DNA of 64,000 nucleotides from Alphaproteobacteria bacterium. Its GTDB lineage: Bacteria > Pseudomonadota > Alphaproteobacteria > RF32 > CAG-239. Where the stretch lies: NCBI GenBank assembly GCA_017626035.1, contig JAGAJR010000018.1, forward strand, positions 36,329 through 100,328, read 5' to 3'. The position numbers were made by a program, and so were the translations under genes. Positions 4,540 through 16,132 of this stretch are shown here, one piece after another. The stretch's first letter is position 1. Each line of letters begins with the position of its first letter. The notes beneath the pieces are model-generated. The model was not told the origin of the DNA, did not search any database, and saw only the letters and a list, made by a program, of their open reading frames with translations.

Positions 4540-5418
4540 TCAGAGACGGGACATAACCTGCTGAATATGATTTAAAAGAATCTGAATTTTTTCAGTTTTC
4601 TTGGCATCATAATGAGAAACAAGCCAGCAGCGGTGTTCCAAATGCAGGTCAATATCAATCGGAATAAGGTCCTTTTCAATTTTTCCGTAATTAATCGGAT
4701 GAACGCCTATTCCCAAACCTTCTTTATTAAACTGTATAAGCAGGTTGGATGAATTAATCTGAGCCACGACATGTTCCGAATGGTCGATGATTTCTTTCCA
4801 TTCCGGCCAGATTGCCGTATATTCTTTTCTGTCGCAAATGTAGTGGTTTCTTTTCAAATCATCCAGATTCTTAGGGATTCCGTAACGGGAAATATATTCG
4901 GGCGAAGCAAAAAGTCCGAATTTTATCATAAATTCGTTAAATATAACCGGTTCGGAAGGTTTCGGCTTGCTGTAAACAATGGCAATGTCAGCTTCTCTGG
5001 TACTGAAATTCGGCATTTCGTTGGAACAAATCACATCCAGGTTAACATCGGGATATTGATGATGGAAGTCAACCAGATGTTGAATTAAACAAGTTCCTAT
5101 ACCGTCAGTTGTCCACAGCTTAATTTTGCCGGAAATGCTGTGTGCTTTTGTCGAATAATTTTGAACATCATACAACAAAGCAAGCAGCCTTTGGGCATAT
5201 TCGTCAATGGCGAGGCCTTCTTCTGTCGGCACCACACCGTGGGAAGCATTGGAAAAAAGCTTCATCCCGGTTTCCTTCTCCAATTTGTGAATGGCGACGG
5301 AAACATTCGATTGTTTGGTAAAAGTTTTTTCGGCAGTTTTGGTATAACTTCCCGTTTTAATTGTATTGTTTAAATAGAGTAAACCTCTAAGGGTTGCAAT
5401 ATGTTTGTTTATATCCAT
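4540..5418 (-). CDS. LysR-family transcriptional regulator
   Basis: A 292-aa protein. It has an N-terminal HTH (TGSYTKTAEKTFTKQSNVSVAIHKLEKETGMKLF) followed by a LysR substrate-binding domain. Confidence 0.75.
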   Translation of the reverse strand: MDINKHIATLRGLLYLNNTIKTGSYTKTAEKTFTKQSNVSVAIHKLEKETGMKLFSNASHGVVPTEEGLAIDEYAQRLLALLYDVQNYSTKAHSISGKIKLWTTDGIGTCLIQHLVDFHHQYPDVNLDVICSNEMPNFSTREADIAIVYSKPKPSEPVIFNEFMIKFGLFASPEYISRYGIPKNLDDLKRNHYICDRKEYTAIWPEWKEIIDHSEHVVAQINSSNLLIQFNKEGLGIGVHPINYGKIEKDLIPIDIDLHLEHRCWLVSHYDAKKTEKIQILLNHIQQVMSRL

Positions 5419-5525: not shown

Positions 5526-6113
5526 ATGACGGAAAATGCAATAAACATAGCGGTTGCTCAAACTCTGGATGATCTGATGAAAGTTATGGTTATCCGGGGA
5601 GCCGTGTTTGTCGGCGAACAGCATCACCGCTATAATCTGGAGTTTGGGGAAGGAGAACTGACCAGAACGCATTTATTGGCTCAGGAAGGAAATGAACCGA
5701 TAGGAACAATGCGTATCTTAAAAGAAAACAAAGATGCCAAGTTTGAACGGTTGGCAATTCTGGCTTCGCACCGGGGTAAAAACGTATCGGAGAAAATAAT
5801 CGAAAAAGGATATGAAATCTGCCGGGAGAGCGGAATAGAACAGGTTTGTCTGTTTTGCAAACCGCACCTGTTGGGTTTCTGGGAAAAGCAGGGATATAAA
5901 AAAGTCGGAGGAAATAAGGCCTTGAAAGTTGAAAATATGCTTCTTCTGCCGATTGTTTTGAATCTGCGTCCCGATCTGGGCGAAAAGGAAGCCGGATATT
6001 ATGATAAAATACCGGACATCCTGTTGAAAGAAAAAGGAGAGTGGGTGGAGTATCAGCCGGATGCTCTGGCCATTATCCTGAATAAGAAAAAAGAATATTT
6101 GTCGGGAAAATGA
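5526..6113 (+). CDS. GNAT-family N-acetyltransferase
   Basis: A 195-aa protein. The acetyl-CoA-binding-like region RLAILASHRGKNVSEKIIEKGYEICRESG is present. Confidence 0.55.
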   Translation: MTENAINIAVAQTLDDLMKVMVIRGAVFVGEQHHRYNLEFGEGELTRTHLLAQEGNEPIGTMRILKENKDAKFERLAILASHRGKNVSEKIIEKGYEICRESGIEQVCLFCKPHLLGFWEKQGYKKVGGNKALKVENMLLLPIVLNLRPDLGEKEAGYYDKIPDILLKEKGEWVEYQPDALAIILNKKKEYLSGK

Positions 6114-6158
6114 TTTTATAAAAAACGGCTCTTTTTCATTTTAAGCAAGGAGAAAAAT

Positions 6159-6356
6159 ATGAAAACCGATATCCGAAAAGAAAATGAATATTTTTTCAGG
6201 GAAGAATATCTTCAGGATATAAAAAACACTAATGATTTGTTTGAAAAACTGGCGTTGGAACTCCGTAAAAGAGGCTATAAGGAAACGCATTATCTTTTGC
6301 AGGTAACACATTATTCCTTTTGTCAGGAAATATTTTCCGAAATAAAAAATAAATAA
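6159..6356 (+). CDS. Small hypothetical protein (65 aa)
   Basis: A strong RBS (AAGGAG) sits 8 nt upstream of the ATG. The gene lies in an AT-rich gap upstream of the helicase-like gene. No recognisable domain. Confidence 0.35.
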   Translation: MKTDIRKENEYFFREEYLQDIKNTNDLFEKLALELRKRGYKETHYLLQVTHYSFCQEIFSEIKNK

Positions 6357-6458
6357 AGCAAAACTGTTGAAAATATGGAACTTAAACTTTCTAAACCGGA
6401 GAAAATAAGCTATATAATCTATATAAGTAATATTTAATATAAAACTCTGGATACCGGA

Positions 6459-7712
6459 ATGAACTTGAGAGTTGCTCCCGGTGCGGCGGAAAAGCTGGCA
6501 CAATTGAAAGCGGGAGCTTTGTTTGTTAAAGAGGAAACGAAAAAAATAGCTTTAGCACTTGATTTGGTTAAATCTAAACAAAGTGAAATAGATTTTATTG
6601 TCTGGATTGCTCCGGCAGCTTTTTGGGCCAGAAAGACGTATTGGGAAAACATAAGAAAAAAAGCCGGATGTTTCCGTAATAAAATTTGCAGCTATTCCGT
6701 TGAAAGCATTTCCATTTCGGATAATAAATATTTGCAGCTTTACAATCTGATTGACAAATACCGGACATTTTGTGTGATAGATGACAGCATTACCATCAAG
6801 AATACCGAGGCTGGCAGAACCAAAAGATTGTTGGCTGTCCGTCATAAATTTAAATACCGTTTGATTTTAAGCTCTTTGCCTTTGGCTCAAGGATTGATAG
6901 ATTTATATTCCCAGTTGGAATTTTTGGATTCAAAAATTTTGCGAATGAATGAGAGCCAGTTTTCCAATATGTTTCTGCCTTTTTACGAAGATTGTTACAA
7001 AACCTGGAGAAGATGGTCGCGGCCGGAAGATGAAAAACTTTTGGTGCAAATGATGCGTCCGTATGTTCTGACTTGCGATATGGCTCAAAACCGGCATTTT
7101 AAATACATTGACAATGATTTTGAACTGACGGACGTAGAACGCCGCAGCTATAAATATGAAAAGGATTTTTTCCTGAAAAACAGAACTCAGGTGGCTTTTA
7201 TGGAGGTCGTCCAGAGCTTTCAAAGAATGTATACCCTGAGCTATAATAAAATTCAGGCTCTGCTTATTTTATTGAAAAATATCACGGAGAGAAAAGAAAA
7301 GGTCATCATTTATATCAGATTTCTGGATGAAATAATTTTCTTTAAGGAAAGCGGTTTCCTGAACGGTTTTGATTTTGTCGAATGCACGGGAAAGTCAAAT
7401 AAACGGCAGGCTGTTTCGGCTTTCACAAGCGGCACGGATATTATGTTTTGTACTTATGGCGTAAACCAGCAGGATTTGGATTTGTCTTTGTGCCGGAATA
7501 TCATCTTTTTCTCTCAAACGTTTGACTATAAGAGCAAGGCACAGGTTTTGGGCAGCTTTAGCGGCGGAAAATTCAAACAGGACATTAATATTTATAATTT
7601 TTGGGTCAAAACCGGTTTAGAGATGATTATCCGGGATAATCTGACCCGCAAGGCAAATGTCTTGTCGCATGTCTGCCGGATTATTTCTCAAAAGGAGATA
7701 AACAGACTGTGA
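6459..7712 (+). CDS. SNF2-family helicase-like protein, N-terminally truncated or degenerate
   Basis: A 417-aa protein. An SNF2 motif III-like block (RLILSSLPLAQGLIDLYSQLEFLD) and a helicase-C region (ECTGKSNKRQAVSAFTSG...) are present. There is no Walker A. The DEAH position reads VIDDSITIKN. The stop overlaps the start of the next gene (ATGA). Confidence 0.5.
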   Translation: MNLRVAPGAAEKLAQLKAGALFVKEETKKIALALDLVKSKQSEIDFIVWIAPAAFWARKTYWENIRKKAGCFRNKICSYSVESISISDNKYLQLYNLIDKYRTFCVIDDSITIKNTEAGRTKRLLAVRHKFKYRLILSSLPLAQGLIDLYSQLEFLDSKILRMNESQFSNMFLPFYEDCYKTWRRWSRPEDEKLLVQMMRPYVLTCDMAQNRHFKYIDNDFELTDVERRSYKYEKDFFLKNRTQVAFMEVVQSFQRMYTLSYNKIQALLILLKNITERKEKVIIYIRFLDEIIFFKESGFLNGFDFVECTGKSNKRQAVSAFTSGTDIMFCTYGVNQQDLDLSLCRNIIFFSQTFDYKSKAQVLGSFSGGKFKQDINIYNFWVKTGLEMIIRDNLTRKANVLSHVCRIISQKEINRL

Positions 7713-9013
7713 AGAAATATTTGGATATAAACGTCTATGAGGCTGTGCAGGAACGTTTGAAATTTGTTTTTGAAAATTTTGAAAACATCTATGTTTCTTT
7801 TTCCGGCGGCAAAGATAGCGGGCTTTTGTTGAACTTGGTCTTGGATTATAAACGCCGCCATGGGATTAAGCGTAAAATCGGCGTCTTTCATCAGGATTTT
7901 GAAGCCCAGTATCAAACAACAACGGATTATGTTACCCGGATGTTTGAGAATAACCTGAATGATATAGAACCTTATTGGGTCTGCCTGCCGATGGGCTCCC
8001 GTTGTGCAGTCAGCAATTATCAAATGTATTGGTATCCGTGGGATAAGACGGAAAAAACTTCCTGGGTTCGTCCGATGCCGGCATTTTCTTATATCATTAA
8101 CGAAGAAAACAATCCGTTTGATTTTTATAAATATAAGATGACGCAGGAAGATTTGTATGCCGAGTTTGGTAAATGGTATGCCCGCACGCATGAAGGCAAA
8201 ACGATTTGCCTTTTGGGGATTCGGGCGGATGAATCGCTGAACCGTTACCGGGCGTATGCCAATGAGCGGAAAAGGATGGTTAAAGAGTCCAAGTGGACGG
8301 CCGAAAAAGGCAAAAATTTCTATAACGGCTATCCGCTTTATGATTGGACAACCAAAGATGTTTGGGTGGCAAACGGGAAATATGACTTTGATTACAATAA
8401 AATTTATGATCTGTTTTATAAAGCCGGATTGTCGATTAATCAAATGCGTGTGGCCAGCCCGTATCACGAGAGTGCCAAAGAAAGTCTGAACCTGTATCGG
8501 GTTTTGGAACCGGCAACCTGGATAAAAGTGGTAAGCCGAGTGCAGGGAGCAAACTTCGGAGCGATTTACGGAAATTCCAAAGCTCTGGGAGCCAGAAAAT
8601 TCACGCTGCCGGAAGGCCATACCTGGAGGTCTTATGTAAAATTTCTTTTGGCGACTTTGCCTGAAGAAATGCGGAAAAATTATATCAGCAAATTCAAAAC
8701 CTCAATTCGTTTCTGGTGGAAAAAAGGCGGCGTTGTCAGTGAAGAGGCGATTAAAGAACTGGAAAACTGCAATTATTCCATCATCCGCAACGGAAAAAGC
8801 AATTATCACAGCAGCAAGGATCAGGTACGTTTTTTGGGAACGCCGGATGATACGGACGATATTAAATCCACCATAGATATTCCGTCATGGAAACGTATGG
8901 CGATTTGTATTCTGAAGAATGACCATTTGTGCAAATATATGGGTTTTACCCAAACACAAAAACAAAGTTCCCGGCAAAAAGAACTTATCGAAAAATACCG
9001 AAAAATGTTATAA
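7709..9013 (+). CDS. PAPS-reductase-like PP-loop protein with DUF3440-like C-terminus (IbrA/YbdN-like)
   Basis: A 434-aa protein. It carries the PP-loop SFSGGKDSG. The N-terminus MKKYLDINVYEAVQERLKFVFENFENIYVSFSGGKDS is typical of the IbrA/YbdN family. Confidence 0.7.
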   Translation: MKKYLDINVYEAVQERLKFVFENFENIYVSFSGGKDSGLLLNLVLDYKRRHGIKRKIGVFHQDFEAQYQTTTDYVTRMFENNLNDIEPYWVCLPMGSRCAVSNYQMYWYPWDKTEKTSWVRPMPAFSYIINEENNPFDFYKYKMTQEDLYAEFGKWYARTHEGKTICLLGIRADESLNRYRAYANERKRMVKESKWTAEKGKNFYNGYPLYDWTTKDVWVANGKYDFDYNKIYDLFYKAGLSINQMRVASPYHESAKESLNLYRVLEPATWIKVVSRVQGANFGAIYGNSKALGARKFTLPEGHTWRSYVKFLLATLPEEMRKNYISKFKTSIRFWWKKGGVVSEEAIKELENCNYSIIRNGKSNYHSSKDQVRFLGTPDDTDDIKSTIDIPSWKRMAICILKNDHLCKYMGFTQTQKQSSRQKELIEKYRKML

Positions 9014-9024
9014 GGAAAACACTA

Positions 9025-9537
9025 ATGAACAAATTTGTCAGTCCGGTTTATAATGTGCAGGCCATTCCCGTCGAAAAAATACGGGCCAATAACTATAATC
9101 CGAACAAAGTCGCTCCGCCGGAGATGAAACTGTTGGAGATTTCTATTTGGGAAGATGGTTATACTCAGCCGATAGTTTGTTATTATGACAAAGAGAAAGA
9201 CGAATATATCGTTGTCGACGGTTTTCACCGTTATACGGTTATGCTGACCAGCGACCGGATTTATGAGCGGGAAGGCGGAAAAATGCCGGTGGTGGTGATT
9301 GATAAGGAACTGGGAGAACGCATGGCCTCTACCATACGCCACAACCGGGCTCGGGGCAGCCATAGCGTCGACTTGATGAGCAATATCGTGTCTGAACTTC
9401 TGGAGATGGGAAAAAGCGATGCCTGGATTTGCCGCAATATCGGAATGTCTGCGGATGAATTGTTGCGTTTAAAACAGTTGACAGGATTGGCTTCTCTGTT
9501 TAAGGATGAGGAGTTTTCCCGCAGTTGGGAAGCCTGA
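9025..9537 (+). CDS. ParB-like nuclease domain protein (IbrB/YbdM-like)
   Basis: The start was chosen at the ATG at 9025, which has an AAGGA RBS. ParB N-domain motifs IPVEKIRANNYNPN and VVDGFHRYTV...TIRHNRARGSH are present. Confidence 0.7.
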   Translation: MNKFVSPVYNVQAIPVEKIRANNYNPNKVAPPEMKLLEISIWEDGYTQPIVCYYDKEKDEYIVVDGFHRYTVMLTSDRIYEREGGKMPVVVIDKELGERMASTIRHNRARGSHSVDLMSNIVSELLEMGKSDAWICRNIGMSADELLRLKQLTGLASLFKDEEFSRSWEA

Positions 9538-10319
9538 AAGGATTATCTTTGCGAAATAAGATATTGATATATTGTGATTACGGTTGTTCGGATATTACCA
9601 ACCTGCACAAGGAACTGGAACGCTGTTTTCAAGACAAAGGCATTAAAATTTCCGAAGTTGACGCTTCGGGAATTATTAAGGAAAACGCCTTAAATGAGGA
9701 AGTCTTGGCCTTTTTTATGCCGGGCGGAGCTTCCACGCCGTATCGGCAGAAACTCAAAGAATACGGAAACGATAAAATTGCGGAATATGTAAAAAACGGC
9801 GGTGTCTATTTTGGTATTTGTGCCGGAGCGTATTATGCCTGCGATAAAATAAACTTTGAAATGGATGTCCCCGAACTCCGGTTGGAGAGAACCGGAATGA
9901 ACTTGATAAATGCCGCGGCGGTGGGAACTTTGTATAAAGAACTTGGAATAGCTCCTTATTCTCCGGACACGTCTTCTGCCGCGGTGGTTGATATTCGTTG
10001 TGAAGACGATGGAGCCGTTTGTGCCGCTTATTATCACGGAGGCCCGTATTTTGACATATCTGAAGATAAAGAATGCGAGGTTTTGGGAACTTATGAAAAT
10101 GTAAAAAATCATCCTCCGGCAATTATTGCTAAAAAATACGGAAAGGGGATGGTTTTAGCCTCGGGAGTGCATCTTGAAGACAGCGGGGAACGTCTGGGAG
10201 CCGCCATTCACAAACTGAAAAAGGATAGGGACAACGCCTTGGCAATCGCCGAACAATTAAAAAAGCGGGAAATTTCCAGACAGATTCTGTTTAATAAAAT
10301 GATGAACCGTATCCGGTAA
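9525..10319 (+). CDS. BPL_N / class-I glutamine-amidotransferase-like protein
   Basis: A 264-aa protein. It has a GATase1-like nucleophile elbow VYFGICAGAYYA. The TTG start overlaps the end of the ParB-like gene by 13 nt. Confidence 0.5.
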   Translation: MGSLKGLSLRNKILIYCDYGCSDITNLHKELERCFQDKGIKISEVDASGIIKENALNEEVLAFFMPGGASTPYRQKLKEYGNDKIAEYVKNGGVYFGICAGAYYACDKINFEMDVPELRLERTGMNLINAAAVGTLYKELGIAPYSPDTSSAAVVDIRCEDDGAVCAAYYHGGPYFDISEDKECEVLGTYENVKNHPPAIIAKKYGKGMVLASGVHLEDSGERLGAAIHKLKKDRDNALAIAEQLKKREISRQILFNKMMNRIR

Positions 10320-10380
10320 ATTGATTTTTTCTTCGGAATGATTATATCTGAGGCGGACAAAACTCGGAAAGGAAAAAATC

Positions 10381-10569
10381 ATGAACGAAGATTTAAATGA
10401 AGTCGTATGCCGTTGTTGGAACGTAACGGCCGGAGATATCAAAAAAGCCGTGGATAACGGAGCACAAAGTTATGAAAGCGTCCGGGACATAACCCGTGCT
10501 TCGACGGGGTGCGGCTGTTGCGAAGGAAGAGTTCGCGAGTTGGTGGAAAAATTTTTACATCCCGAATAA
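10381..10569 (+). CDS. Bfd-like (2Fe-2S)-binding protein
   Basis: A 62-aa protein with the four-Cys pattern CRC...CGCC typical of the BFD-like [2Fe-2S] domain. Confidence 0.6.
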   Translation: MNEDLNEVVCRCWNVTAGDIKKAVDNGAQSYESVRDITRASTGCGCCEGRVRELVEKFLHPE

Positions 10570-10575
10570 CCGATA

Positions 10576-10609
10576 AAATCCCCGGAAGAAAAACGGGGAT
10601 TTTTTTTGT
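10576..10609 (+). terminator. Rho-independent terminator closing the cassette
   Basis: A hairpin (AAATCCCCGGAAGAAAAACGGGGATTT) followed by a T7 tract. Confidence 0.7.
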
Positions 10610-13486: not shown

Positions 13487-16132
13487 ATGATGAAAATCGC
13501 TGATTTCAAAGAATATATGGCAGCCATCCGCAGCCTTTATTCCGGTTCTTCTGCGGAAGAACTGGATGCACTTTTGCACGATTTGAAATCTGCGTCAATC
13601 CAAAGGGAAAATACCAAAAAGAAACTTCAGGCGGAACTTAAAAAAATCAGATACCGGATTAACCTGTTACGAGAAAGAATTAAACAGGCACAAGGGATTG
13701 AGGATAAAATTGAAGCCAGCCGTGAAATAAAAGAATATCAGCAGTTAAAAAAGGAATTTATACTTAAAAATAAGGAACTTGAAGGCGTCCCCCGTTTTGA
13801 AATGTTGTCACCTTATGCCAAAACGGCAGCTTGTACGGATTTTTTGTTGAAAAAATATCTGACAAAAGAGATTGTCAAAAACAACCCGCTCGGGTTTAAG
13901 AAAAATCAGAGAGGAGATATTGTTGTTGATATTAAACAGCTTCAAAATTCCCATTTATATCAGGAAGCGGCTCATATAAGAGACTATGTTTCGTCTTATA
14001 TTAACCTGTATCCGCATCGGGTTTTGGGAGCAGGATATTTTAACGGAAAACTGTCGGAAATGAAAAGCTGGACTGAACTTCTGGAGGCGGCGGACAGGCA
14101 TTTTGACGAAATCAACCGTAAGGAAAAAGAAAACAAAGATAAAGAAAAAAAGGTTGCCGAAAGCCGGGACGGAATAGAAAGCGTAGAAATTTATGCCTCG
14201 GAAAATCTTCAGGCCGTAAGGCTTCTGAGCGAAAATGCCTTAAAGTATGAAGGCCGGGAAATGGGGCATTGTGTCGGCAGTTATTACAATCGTGTAAAAA
14301 ACGGCACATCTCAAATTTATTCCTTGCGGGATTATAATGAGGAGGGAGAGCTGGTTCCTCACGTAACGATTGAGGTTGTTGGCGACAGAGTGGTTCAGAT
14401 AAAGGGACGGTCCGACAAAATGGCTGCTCCCCGTTATATAAAGGCGGCTCGGAATTTGGTTATGAAACTTTCCGGAATAAAAACTTTGGAAAAGTTGAAA
14501 AATACGCAAAACATTCCATCATCGGAGCTTGAAAATATCGGGTTTATAAAAGATAAAAACAATAAGATTCAAGATATTTTATCGCTTAAGAAAGATGAAA
14601 TTGAATTATATAATTTAACGATAAACGGAGAAGATTTAAATTATCTGAATTTGGAAAGATTGAAAGTAACCGAACTGTATTTAACGGGTGTTCTTTCTCA
14701 GTCTGTCTTGGATAATCTGGCAAAATTAAAATCTCTGCAATCAATCAGTTTGGGAAAGGTAAAATCCGTCGAAGGGAAGAGTTTGGATTTCGGAGGATTG
14801 TCAGAAATAAAACATTTAACTTTGTCTTCTTGCGATTTGTCGTCTGTCAAAAAAATATGTCTTCCTGAAAATTTGCAGGATTTATATTTAGGGAAGGTCA
14901 AGAGCGGATTGGATATCGTTTATTCCAAGAATCTGAAAAGCTTGAATATAAGCCTATCCTCTGCCGCTGATATTAAATATTTTGAAGAAAAAATATCTTC
15001 CCCGATATTGAAAATATATGTGCAGGATATGGATATCCGGGAGAATTTGTCTTTTGCCAAAACGAGTTTGCTGGTATTTGAAAATTGCCGGATTGAGGAA
15101 GGAAAGCATATTTTCGTATCGGAAAATTTGCAAAATTTGGAAGTGGAAGAATCTCCGGGGCTGTTGGAGTCGATAGTTTTTGAAAACCAAAACAACATAA
15201 AGGTTCTAAAATCAGATGACGGGAGTGTTTTCAACAGCAATGTGATTTCTCCGAATTTATCATCTTTTGTTGTCGGCAATGTTGAACTTGATGAGAAAAC
15301 CGCCGCACAAATATCTGAAATGTCAGAGTTGCGGGTATTGGGTTTGAACGAAGTTTCCTATCATGCCAAGCAGCCGTGGATTATTCCCGAAAGTACGGAA
15401 TGGATTACTTTTAGCGGGGTTGATTTTGACGGTATTTTGTCCGGAGAAAAATGTTCAAATCTGCAAAAAGTTGTATTGATTGGATGTGATTTGCAGAATG
15501 CGGATGTGAGGTTAAACACCGTTTTGAAGCAATCAACTTTAAATCTGGTGCAGAGCAAAGTCGGTATTGAATTTGACTTTGATATGTTCAAAGGTGTAAC
15601 CGAATTGAATGTTGGCAGCCAGGATTTATCGGCAAGAAGCAAAGAATTGAAGTTTCCGGAGACAGTGGAAACTCTGTTGTTAGGCGGTTGGCTTCCCGAT
15701 AAAATGACGGAATTGGACTTGACTCCGTATAAAAAATTGCGGACAATCAATATGGGAATGATGAGCGGCAGAAATGTGGAAAAGATAATTTTTCCTGAGA
15801 ATCTGGTCGATTTTACATTTGATGAAATTGGCTGGCTCAAGTCATTGACTGAGTTGGATTTAAGCCGTTGTCACAAAATGACGGATTGGAATGAAACCTT
15901 GCTTAATCAGTTTACATTGATTAAACTTCCGGAAACAATAAAAAAGATGCCATGGAAACAAATGGCGTTTAATGATAATGTTCGGATTGAACTGCATGCA
16001 AATACGCCGCAGGAAGTTGTGGAAGAATTTAAATCCCATTTGGGGAATAAAGTTATTATCGGCAAAAAGCAACAGGAAAAAGGGAAGATAAATCTTTTGC
16101 CGATGTTGTTCGACAAATGTCAGGAATTTTAG
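13487..16132 (+). CDS. Large LRR-containing effector-like protein with a conserved N-terminal domain (H-C motif)
   Basis: An 881-aa AT-rich gene. The N-terminal domain contains EGREMGHCVGSYYNRV...IYSLRD...PHVTIEV. The C-terminal ~500 aa are leucine-rich repeat-like (LxxLxLxxC/N). Confidence 0.65.
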   Translation: MMKIADFKEYMAAIRSLYSGSSAEELDALLHDLKSASIQRENTKKKLQAELKKIRYRINLLRERIKQAQGIEDKIEASREIKEYQQLKKEFILKNKELEGVPRFEMLSPYAKTAACTDFLLKKYLTKEIVKNNPLGFKKNQRGDIVVDIKQLQNSHLYQEAAHIRDYVSSYINLYPHRVLGAGYFNGKLSEMKSWTELLEAADRHFDEINRKEKENKDKEKKVAESRDGIESVEIYASENLQAVRLLSENALKYEGREMGHCVGSYYNRVKNGTSQIYSLRDYNEEGELVPHVTIEVVGDRVVQIKGRSDKMAAPRYIKAARNLVMKLSGIKTLEKLKNTQNIPSSELENIGFIKDKNNKIQDILSLKKDEIELYNLTINGEDLNYLNLERLKVTELYLTGVLSQSVLDNLAKLKSLQSISLGKVKSVEGKSLDFGGLSEIKHLTLSSCDLSSVKKICLPENLQDLYLGKVKSGLDIVYSKNLKSLNISLSSAADIKYFEEKISSPILKIYVQDMDIRENLSFAKTSLLVFENCRIEEGKHIFVSENLQNLEVEESPGLLESIVFENQNNIKVLKSDDGSVFNSNVISPNLSSFVVGNVELDEKTAAQISEMSELRVLGLNEVSYHAKQPWIIPESTEWITFSGVDFDGILSGEKCSNLQKVVLIGCDLQNADVRLNTVLKQSTLNLVQSKVGIEFDFDMFKGVTELNVGSQDLSARSKELKFPETVETLLLGGWLPDKMTELDLTPYKKLRTINMGMMSGRNVEKIIFPENLVDFTFDEIGWLKSLTELDLSRCHKMTDWNETLLNQFTLIKLPETIKKMPWKQMAFNDNVRIELHANTPQEVVEEFKSHLGNKVIIGKKQQEKGKINLLPMLFDKCQEF

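Follow-up and report, generated by a model that had tools for sequence, protein, structure and literature searches.

A conserved gene triad encoding SNF2-like, IbrA-type and IbrB-type proteins, with decayed SNF2 ATPase motifs in gut Alphaproteobacteria

In a 64,000-nt stretch of alphaproteobacterial DNA (the window; coordinates are counted from its first letter), three tightly packed genes encode a SNF2-like protein, an IbrA/YbdN-type protein with a PP-loop, and an IbrB/YbdM-type protein with a ParB-like fold. These three genes are the conserved unit of the locus. The relatives of the window are metagenome-assembled genomes (MAGs) of uncultured gut Alphaproteobacteria, labelled 'Alphaproteobacteria bacterium', 'uncultured Azospirillum sp.', 'Proteobacteria bacterium CAG:495' or 'Candidatus Scatocola', and in this clade the SNF2-like gene is under purifying selection despite the loss of its ATPase motifs. 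IbrA/IbrB-type pairs were named more than twenty years ago, and the IbrAB-type module is already known; what is new is a chromosomal, vertical-looking form of it, with decayed ATPase motifs and two lineage-specific passenger genes.

A scan for relatives of the SNF2-like protein, in which the family alignment was the query and each species was represented by one genome, yielded 62 full-length loci at 29–87% identity. Genes for IbrA and IbrB lie tightly downstream on the same strand in 61 of these loci, and in the sole exception the contig ends inside ibrA. An earlier note on this DNA, made from the sequence alone, had proposed the association of an SNF2-type gene with IbrAB; it recurs in every full-length relative examined and is the strongest part of the finding. 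Of the four- or five-gene order for which the note suggested a neighbourhood search, three genes are found together in genomes and in phages. The junctions within the triad are short. The 4-nt GTGA overlap of the SNF2-like gene and ibrA (7709–7712), already pointed out in the note, is real: it is preceded by an AAGGAG Shine-Dalgarno sequence and recurs in the gene calls of relatives at 87%, 56% and 45% identity. The gap reported between ibrA and ibrB is likewise present, but its length is 11 nt (9014–9024, including an AAGGA ribosome-binding site) and not 12 nt.

The SNF2-like protein had been described as a truncated helicase, but it is a complete minimal two-lobe core, and its relatives are uniformly about 411–447 residues long. 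It matches Pfam PF00176 with 29.3 bits against a cut-off of 24.9, and the family profile matches the Sulfolobus SNF2 enzyme (PDB 1z63; 2.9e-23) over positions 48–405, that is, over the whole two-lobe core, as well as Ino80, Swr1 and Snf2. In the window protein, Walker A reads KEETKK (GTGKT in the intact form), motif II reads IDDS (DESI), motif III reads SSLP (NGTP), and motif VI reads LGSFSGGKF, with its arginines lost. Motifs were compared over 69 loci, including 46 gut-alphaproteobacterial copies. None of the 46 keeps a full GxGK(T/S) or the motif VI arginine pair (RxxRxGQ), whereas all copies from outside this clade keep GxGKT, DES(I/L), NG(T/Q/E)P and (H/Y)R(I/V)(Y/F)RxGQ; the latter come from phages, Opitutales, Holosporaceae, Arcobacteraceae, Oscillospiraceae, Chitinophagaceae and a phage- or plasmid-like contig.

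In comparisons of the window with the related loci L008 and L009, the ratio of nonsynonymous to synonymous substitution rates (dN/dS) is 0.05 for the SNF2-like gene and 0.012–0.028 for ibrA and ibrB; with dS above 1, and so saturated, these values are approximate. Relative to IbrA, the divergence of the SNF2-like protein is 2.25 times as fast in the gut-alphaproteobacterial clade and 1.18 times as fast in Opitutales, whose copies have intact motifs. The simplest reading of these sequence comparisons is that ATP hydrolysis has been lost in this clade, whereas a non-catalytic role, such as binding or scaffolding, would have been retained.

IbrA matches DUF3440 (PF11922; 3.2e-79) and PAPS_reduct (PF01507; 1.2e-11) in Pfam, and is 32% identical to Escherichia coli YbdN (E 1e-70). 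IbrB is 46% identical to E. coli YbdM (E 8e-51), so that the IbrA/IbrB (YbdN/YbdM) pairing recognised in the earlier note holds. The IbrA family comprises 367 clusters at 50% identity (E 1e-30 or better). Residue conservation in both proteins was measured over 119 diverse sequences. In IbrA, the SGGKDS PP-loop, D63, E65, Y68, T71, a GxRxxESxxR motif and a YPxYDW block are kept, together with several residues of DUF3440, and there are zero conserved cysteines. In IbrB, NxYNPN, DGxHR, NRARGxH and E145/R148/K150/Q151 are kept; its ParB_N match, at 25.0 bits, lies just below the cut-off of 26.3. The window copies retain all of these residues, and the degenerate PP-loop and ParB motifs that the note had allowed for are not what is seen.

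A first AlphaFold2 model of IbrA was discarded, since its predicted local distance difference test score (pLDDT) was 45.7 and its alignment was shallow (21 sequences, 79–87% identical). A second model, built with 50 diverse sequences, has a pLDDT of 88 and a predicted template modelling score (pTM) of 0.82. The solved folds closest to this model are those of FAD synthase, APS/PAPS reductases and CysD (sequence identity of 15–18% to FAD synthase and CysD), and TilS, TtuA and the NAD and GMP synthetases rank next; a profile-sequence search ranks the relatives of IbrA as the structure search does. Each match aligns about 160–180 residues, which is the size of a PP-loop domain. FAD synthase and CysD differ from IbrA in that they have no DUF3440 domain and no constant ParB-like partner. 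Judged from the residue pattern and the modelled fold, IbrA is most likely an ATP alpha-beta-cleaving adenylyl-transferase or an ATP pyrophosphatase that would work without thiol or Fe-S chemistry. The residue pattern, with no conserved cysteine, and the nearest folds together argue against sulfur chemistry of the Dnd, Ssp or CysH type.

The three proteins also match phage protein families (Table 1). By tblastn, 173 phage records contain the SNF2-like protein and 224 contain IbrA, and the isolated phages with all three genes include Streptococcus phage Pika, Lactobacillus phages CR28 and phiAQ113, and Flavobacterium phage FCL-2. In Pika, the triad follows the lysis genes at the head of the early/replication region and is annotated as 'DNA helicase', 'PAPS reductase' and 'ParB-like partition protein'. 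In FCL-2, the gene order is helicase, ParB, IbrA, and the authors report no integrase or lysogeny (PMC4541368). A scan of IMG/VR yielded 59 complete viral triads, which are always on a single strand and occur in three gene orders. The phage modules (Pika, CHPC877, phiAQ113, CR28 and FCL-2) resemble that of the window in their three families, their single strand and the compact size of the SNF2-like protein. Identity to the window is 44–49% for IbrA of the Streptococcus and Lactobacillus phages and 28% for that of FCL-2, 56–64% for IbrB and 27–29% for the SNF2-like protein. Walker A (GTGKT), motif III (NGTP) and the arginines of motif VI are intact in the phage SNF2 copies, unlike in the window copy. 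The window locus also differs from the phage modules in lying on the chromosome, outside any prophage.

When the search is started from IbrA, IbrB is adjacent in all 46 viral loci that have enough flanking DNA, whereas an SNF2-like gene is adjacent in only 14 of the 46. Because of this difference, and because the E. coli pairs do without SNF2, IbrAB is regarded as the obligate core and the compact SNF2 form as a large subtype.

Phage operons often carry further genes, among them those for a leader protein of about 90 residues, a GNAT acetyltransferase and a methylase-like protein, which are absent from the window triad. A GNAT acetyltransferase gene lies inside or beside the phage triad at 21 loci (e.g., L111:7577–8035 and L125:7321–7776). 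In 12 viral triads (L124:12061–12792, L128:12139–12801 and others), IbrB is followed by a protein of about 220 residues with a DPPW motif and a weak match to N6_N4 DNA methylases. A family of about 294 residues, without a Pfam or PHROG match, precedes IbrA in 12 viral loci, and a family of 213–430 residues, matching phrog_16123 in part, lies upstream of the SNF2-like gene in 36. The operon is headed at 27 loci (e.g., L004:7769–8017, L007:3825–4148 and L063:6709–7008) by a small protein of about 85–110 residues, the gene of which often overlaps the next one. This small protein is found in the phage, Opitutales and other intact-motif versions; its Flavobacterium form is phrog_5809, and in the three examples read its C-terminus is (D/E)(E/D)LK(Y/F/K). 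No homolog of it was detected in the gut-alphaproteobacterial clade. Locus L004, on a contig shared with L064 (CAZOZP010000030.1, from a Melioribacteraceae MAG), has the triad among many small open reading frames (ORFs). The contig also encodes an ART-PolyVal/LPD22 protein of >2,200 residues and a Toprim-DnaB primase-helicase; here, a phage- or plasmid-like element has ended up in the bin of a bacterial MAG.

In E. coli, the IbrA/IbrB pair of the pathogenicity island (e.g., in strain 536) and the YbdN/YbdM pair of K-12 resemble the window pair in both proteins, in their adjacency and in their order, and they share all family-wide conserved residues with the window proteins. Unlike in the window, no SNF2-like gene adjoins the pairs of strain 536 and K-12. 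E. coli ibrAB activates prophage eib genes in ECOR-9, the one strain from which this effect is known (Sandt et al., 2002, as cited in PMC6008420; the effect is also cited in PMC4541368). The K-12 genes ybdNM are strongly derepressed in a citR (ybdO) mutant, and CitR is their repressor (PMC9068703). Of 5,426 complete E. coli genomes, 5,421 contain DNA similar to ybdNM. About 1,800 E. coli genomes have another type of ibrA, borne on an island, and some plasmids carry fragments of this type disrupted by insertion sequences (L174:5832–6134).

The earlier note had described a unit of five genes, in which those for a BPL_N-like protein and a Bfd-like protein follow the triad. However, only L005, L008 and L009, three loci with identities of 81% or more, have these two genes next to the triad, and the LysR, GNAT, 65-residue ORF and EamA genes found beside the window triad are confined to the same three loci. 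BPL_N homologs at about 50% identity are solitary, their neighbours being DUF179 and amino-acid permease genes, an ankyrin gene or an adenosine deaminase gene, and there is no IbrAB and no Bfd near those examined. Because the pair is confined to three loci and BPL_N homologs elsewhere are solitary, BPL_N and bfd are considered passengers of a sub-lineage, which are probably co-transcribed with the triad. In the BPL_N-like protein, C99 (within GICAG), H216 and E218 are invariant in 11 sequences. The Bfd-like translation contains the cluster-binding residues C10, C12, C44 and C47 (CxC...CxxC). The 13-nt overlap of ibrB and the BPL_N gene (9525–9537) listed in the note probably arises only because the longest ORF was taken: homologs begin with MRNKILIY, which corresponds to the TTG at 9549 with AAAGGA ahead of it, and this start gives a product of 256 residues and an 11-nt gap after ibrB.

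The cassette had been taken to begin at 6141, which is not the start of the SNF2-like gene; a 65-residue ORF and a 102-nt non-coding leader (6357–6458) are found there. The leader is 91% identical to that of L008 and 90% identical to that of L009, versus 48–62% at four-fold degenerate sites of the flanking genes. It contains a TGTTGAAAA box, a –35-like TTGAAA (6367–6372), tandem ATAA(G/T)CTATATAA repeats and AT-rich palindromes, and 13 of 47 gut-alphaproteobacterial loci have its 8-mer TGTTGAAA ahead of the SNF2-like gene. A consensus promoter scan gave 16 matches, which is no excess over the 13.5 ± 3.6 in shuffled sequence. A riboswitch or other structured RNA was also considered for the leader and rejected, as Rfam gives no match even at E values up to 1 and folding yields a z-score of –0.14. 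Its conservation and sequence elements suggest that the leader is probably the operon's own promoter together with operator sites. With such a promoter-like leader, the triad's own transcript probably starts there and would extend across BPL_N and bfd as far as 10609; transcription may also enter the triad from the GNAT gene by read-through. No terminator was detected by the consensus scan between the triad and the end of bfd. The terminator that the note had placed after bfd is confirmed by folding: it has a 10-bp stem, a 9-nt loop and a T-run, with a dG of –19.2 kcal/mol and a z-score of –2.77, and the scan overlooked it because its loop limit is 8 nt.

The triad and its passengers belong to a run of seven co-oriented plus-strand ORFs from 5526 to 10609, in the order GNAT, 65-residue ORF, SNF2-like, IbrA, IbrB, BPL_N and Bfd; for the five ORFs that the note had listed, Pfam searches with each protein support the domain calls. 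The locus is flanked by flagellar genes (FlgI) on one side and an ABC-F gene on the other, with LysR, GNAT and EamA genes as further neighbours. FlgI is kept upstream in many gut-alphaproteobacterial loci and the ABC-F gene is kept downstream in some, including relatives at 56% identity. Such synteny speaks for a stable position in the chromosome and against a mobile island, and the defence-island setting suggested in the note gives way to a flagellar/ABC-F neighbourhood. Across the 46 species-level genomes of the window's clade, inheritance of the operon looks vertical.

Several known systems combine related domains. The earlier note had drawn an analogy to DNA sulfur modification. The DndABCDE, SspABCD and type-4 BREX systems do contain a PP-loop enzyme of the PAPS-reductase family (DndC, SspD and BrxP, respectively), and Dnd also has a ParB-superfamily protein, DndB. 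However, cysteines, scores and partners all stand against the analogy. IbrA has neither the cysteines of DndC nor any other conserved cysteine, and it scores 21.6 bits against the DndC equivalog TIGR03183, for which the cut-off is 290.4. The PADLOC model of DndC aligns with one partial stretch of IbrA (6.1e-07) and that of BrxP with residues 22–44 only, a 23-residue PP-loop. Of the partner proteins, none of cysteine desulfurase, DndD/E, SspB/C and PglZ, and no other Dnd, Ssp or BREX component, is encoded at the locus. In PADLOC-DB v2.0, the set of defence models searched, no described or candidate system was matched: the SNF2-like protein and IbrA have weak partial matches only (DndC, BrxP and ZorD), and IbrB, BPL_N and Bfd have none. 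The author of the note was not aware of a described system that combines IbrAB with SNF2, and PADLOC describes none. The Dpd 7-deazaguanine system could be an analogous case, as its cluster includes a modifying enzyme, the ParB-like ATPase DpdB, which assists that enzyme on DNA, and SNF2-type helicases (described in PMC12839542); it differs in that the TGT-family DpdA and DpdC are absent here and that the enzyme here is a PP-loop protein.

The triad can tentatively be viewed as a nucleic-acid-directed, ATP-dependent module for modification, marking or regulation, which would be of phage origin and would have been domesticated here from a form widespread in tailed phages; we rate this account somewhat below an even chance. 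A narrower version is possible but doubtful: the triad would be an ATP-dependent, sulfur-free pathway of DNA or RNA modification via adenylation, which phages would use on their own genomes and which gut Alphaproteobacteria would have rewired as an epigenetic or regulatory system with an ATPase-dead SNF2 partner. The modification reading is proposed because IbrA is obligately paired with a ParB-fold protein and has a dedicated SNF2 partner, and because GNAT and methylase-like genes recur in phages, FCL-2 carries the module although it is reportedly non-lysogenic, and the catalytic signatures are strictly conserved.

The data show the unit of three genes, where it occurs, which of its motifs are intact or lost, the purifying selection and the fold of IbrA; for what the complex acts on, what IbrB and the SNF2-like protein contribute and what the biological outcome is, we infer the following scheme. 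IbrB, with its ParB/Srx fold and probable nucleotide binding, would bring the complex to DNA. The PP-loop of IbrA would split ATP into AMP and pyrophosphate, and IbrA would adenylate an oxygen acceptor on nucleic acid or on a bound substrate in a manner similar to FAD synthase and CysD, with no sulfur or thiol involved; this step would leave either a covalent mark or an activated intermediate. The role of the SNF2 partner in phages and most bacteria would be to expose the target, using ATP to translocate on DNA or distort it. In gut Alphaproteobacteria, this partner would have lost ATP hydrolysis and been kept as a structural or DNA-binding subunit. The output in this clade would more likely be regulatory or epigenetic than defensive, in line with eib activation and ybdNM repression in E. 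coli.

Several points weigh against this reading. To our knowledge, no biochemical activity has been established for any IbrA or IbrB, and full-text literature searches turned up no study on what the triad does or on the biochemistry of IbrA/IbrB. The sequence of the window reveals no modified base, target sequence or effector. No solved structure matched DUF3440, and the substrate-binding part of IbrA thus stays uninterpreted. E. coli IbrAB and YbdNM work without an SNF2 partner and about 70% of sampled viral IbrAB loci lack one; because so many IbrAB pairs do without it, SNF2 cannot be essential to the chemistry. With an ATPase-dead SNF2, the operon could also have lost its ancestral activity and taken on a different one, and the dN/dS values bearing on its constraint are only approximate owing to saturated dS.

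Among the alternatives, transcription control without covalent modification survives best, and is possible though rather unlikely. IbrAB and the SNF2-like protein would then act in a RapA-like manner on RNA polymerase or nucleoid proteins, switching on silent genes. The label 'co-activator of prophage gene expression' implies such a role, and the sole genetic phenotype on record is the activation of eib by ibrAB (cited in PMC6008420 and PMC4541368). CitR represses ybdNM in E. coli (PMC9068703), a strongly constrained leader precedes the window operon, and the phage triad opens the early/replication region in Pika; an ATPase-dead SNF2 could serve as a binding adaptor. However, the strict PP-loop of IbrA and the DGxHR and NRARGxH motifs of IbrB point to enzymes rather than plain DNA-binding regulators. 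The recurrent GNAT and methylase-like neighbours in phages suggest nucleic-acid chemistry, and the Pfam search detected no helix-turn-helix or sigma-like domain.

Defence against phages or plasmids, or superinfection exclusion, in which the module would sense or attack invading DNA, is unlikely. Defence islands are normally patchy, whereas this operon is syntenic, vertical-looking and under strong purifying selection over 46 species-level genomes, and its motor subunit lacks ATPase motifs here. In addition, no PADLOC system and no IbrB model matches, domain and family searches of the three genes recognised no nuclease, toxin or membrane effector, the reportedly non-lysogenic FCL-2 carries the genes (PMC4541368), and in Pika they occupy an early/replication position. 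These observations have to be set against the occurrence of PP-loop, ParB-like and SNF2 domains in Dnd, Ssp, BREX, Dpd, Zorya and DISARM, with the weak PADLOC matches to DndC, BrxP and ZorD, and against the carriage of the genes by temperate phages and prophages. A preprint also lists predicted 'PANGU-like' clusters of a nucleoid protein, a PAPS reductase and a ParBc protein (10.64898/2026.04.06.716658). Overall, the evidence favours modification or regulation over defence.

A five-gene amination pathway is very improbable. Here, IbrA would adenylate a carbonyl, the class-I glutamine-amidotransferase (GATase1)-like BPL_N protein would provide ammonia as in GMP synthetase, and Bfd would be a redox or iron-sulfur helper. 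The Cys-His-Glu triad of the BPL_N-like protein is invariant, and its gene lies within 11 nt of ibrB or overlaps it, with no terminator between the two and one after bfd. Nevertheless, the pairing is limited to the three closely related loci among 61 genome loci and 59 viral triads, the more distant BPL_N homologs are solitary with no IbrAB or Bfd nearby, and IbrA groups with the PAPS-reductase/CysD/FAD-synthase branch and not with amidotransferase-coupled synthetases. That IbrA is a genuine PAPS/APS reductase and an auxiliary metabolic gene of sulfur assimilation, as its Pfam PAPS_reduct match and the annotation of such genes as host sulfur metabolism in phage papers (PMC11318856; PMC12323421) would have it, is hardly tenable, given that no cysteine is conserved over the 119 sequences, which leaves IbrA without the catalytic C-terminal cysteine of CysH and any Fe-S ligands, that the NCBIfam PAPS reductase model NF002537 gives 20.1 bits against a cut-off of 154, that the ParB-like partner is obligate (46/46 loci), and that the canonical PP-loop indicates ATP alpha-beta cleavage.

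IbrAB is found in most E. coli genomes and in hundreds of phage records, and its phage copies are routinely mislabelled as sulfur-metabolism or partition proteins. To this, the present analysis adds a precise three-gene subtype with a dedicated compact SNF2 partner, the invariant residues of each protein, and the recurrent accessory genes. It also describes a natural experiment, in which the motor motifs have decayed clade-wide while the gene and its two partners remain under strong purifying selection. The locus is not unique and its mechanism is one that we infer; it gives a testable handle on what IbrAB proteins do. If the module modifies DNA, it would matter for phage–host conflict, for phage therapy candidates such as FCL-2 and the streptococcal phages of dairies, and for how epigenetic signals are read in gut metagenomes.

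Table 1. Features of the triad and its surroundings in the window.
Feature	Coordinates	Strand	Evidence or remark
LysR regulator	4540–5418	minus	Pfam
GNAT acetyltransferase	5526–6113	plus	Pfam
65-residue ORF between the GNAT gene and the leader	6159–6356	plus	ORF; AAGGAG ribosome-binding site
Non-coding leader with promoter-like region	6357–6458	plus	Conservation, repeats
SNF2-like protein, 417 residues	6459–7712	plus	Pfam SNF2-rel_dom 5.7e-07; phrog_62 (DNA helicase) 1.6e-24
IbrA/YbdN-type protein, 434 residues; PP-loop (AANH) PAPS-reductase-family domain and C-terminal DUF3440	7709–9013	plus	GTG start; phrog_2302 1.9e-112
IbrB/YbdM-type ParB/Srx-fold protein, 170 residues	9025–9537	plus	Pfam ParB_N 2e-05; phrog_2159 1.4e-79
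BPL_N / class-I glutamine-amidotransferase-like protein	9549–10319	plus	Pfam BPL_N (PF09825) 2.5e-35; longest ORF starts at TTG 9525
Bfd-like [2Fe-2S] protein, 62 residues	10381–10569	plus	Pfam Fer2_BFD (PF04324) 3.9e-15
Intrinsic terminator ending the co-oriented run	10576–10609	plus	Sequence and fold

The genes flanking the triad have counterparts of several kinds elsewhere. In K-12, the LysR-type gene citR lies directly upstream of ybdN; the window LysR matches CitR/YbdO with E of only 0.003 and was rejected as its ortholog. LysR proteins recur near IbrAB, including CitR, without being orthologous, and in two other gut-alphaproteobacterial loci a LysR-type gene is directly downstream of ibrB (L011, around 10114; L051, around 10145). 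The window GNAT and the phage-triad GNAT align by hhalign with E 1.9e-07 and are 22% identical by BLASTP; membership of the window protein in the phage-triad family was rejected, as this is generic GNAT-fold similarity only. From these comparisons, the presence of GNAT genes both near the window triad and in viral triads may reflect coincidence or convergent recruitment.

The 65-residue ORF is 83–85% identical in L008 and L009, with a dN/dS of about 0.055 (approximate, as above) that indicates purifying selection, and it has no match in Pfam, PHROGs or NCBIfam. It was rejected as a counterpart of the small proteins that head phage operons, with an hhalign probability below 1%. Downstream of the ABC-F gene, an 881-residue ORF (13487–16132) has a repetitive, leucine-rich C-terminal half.

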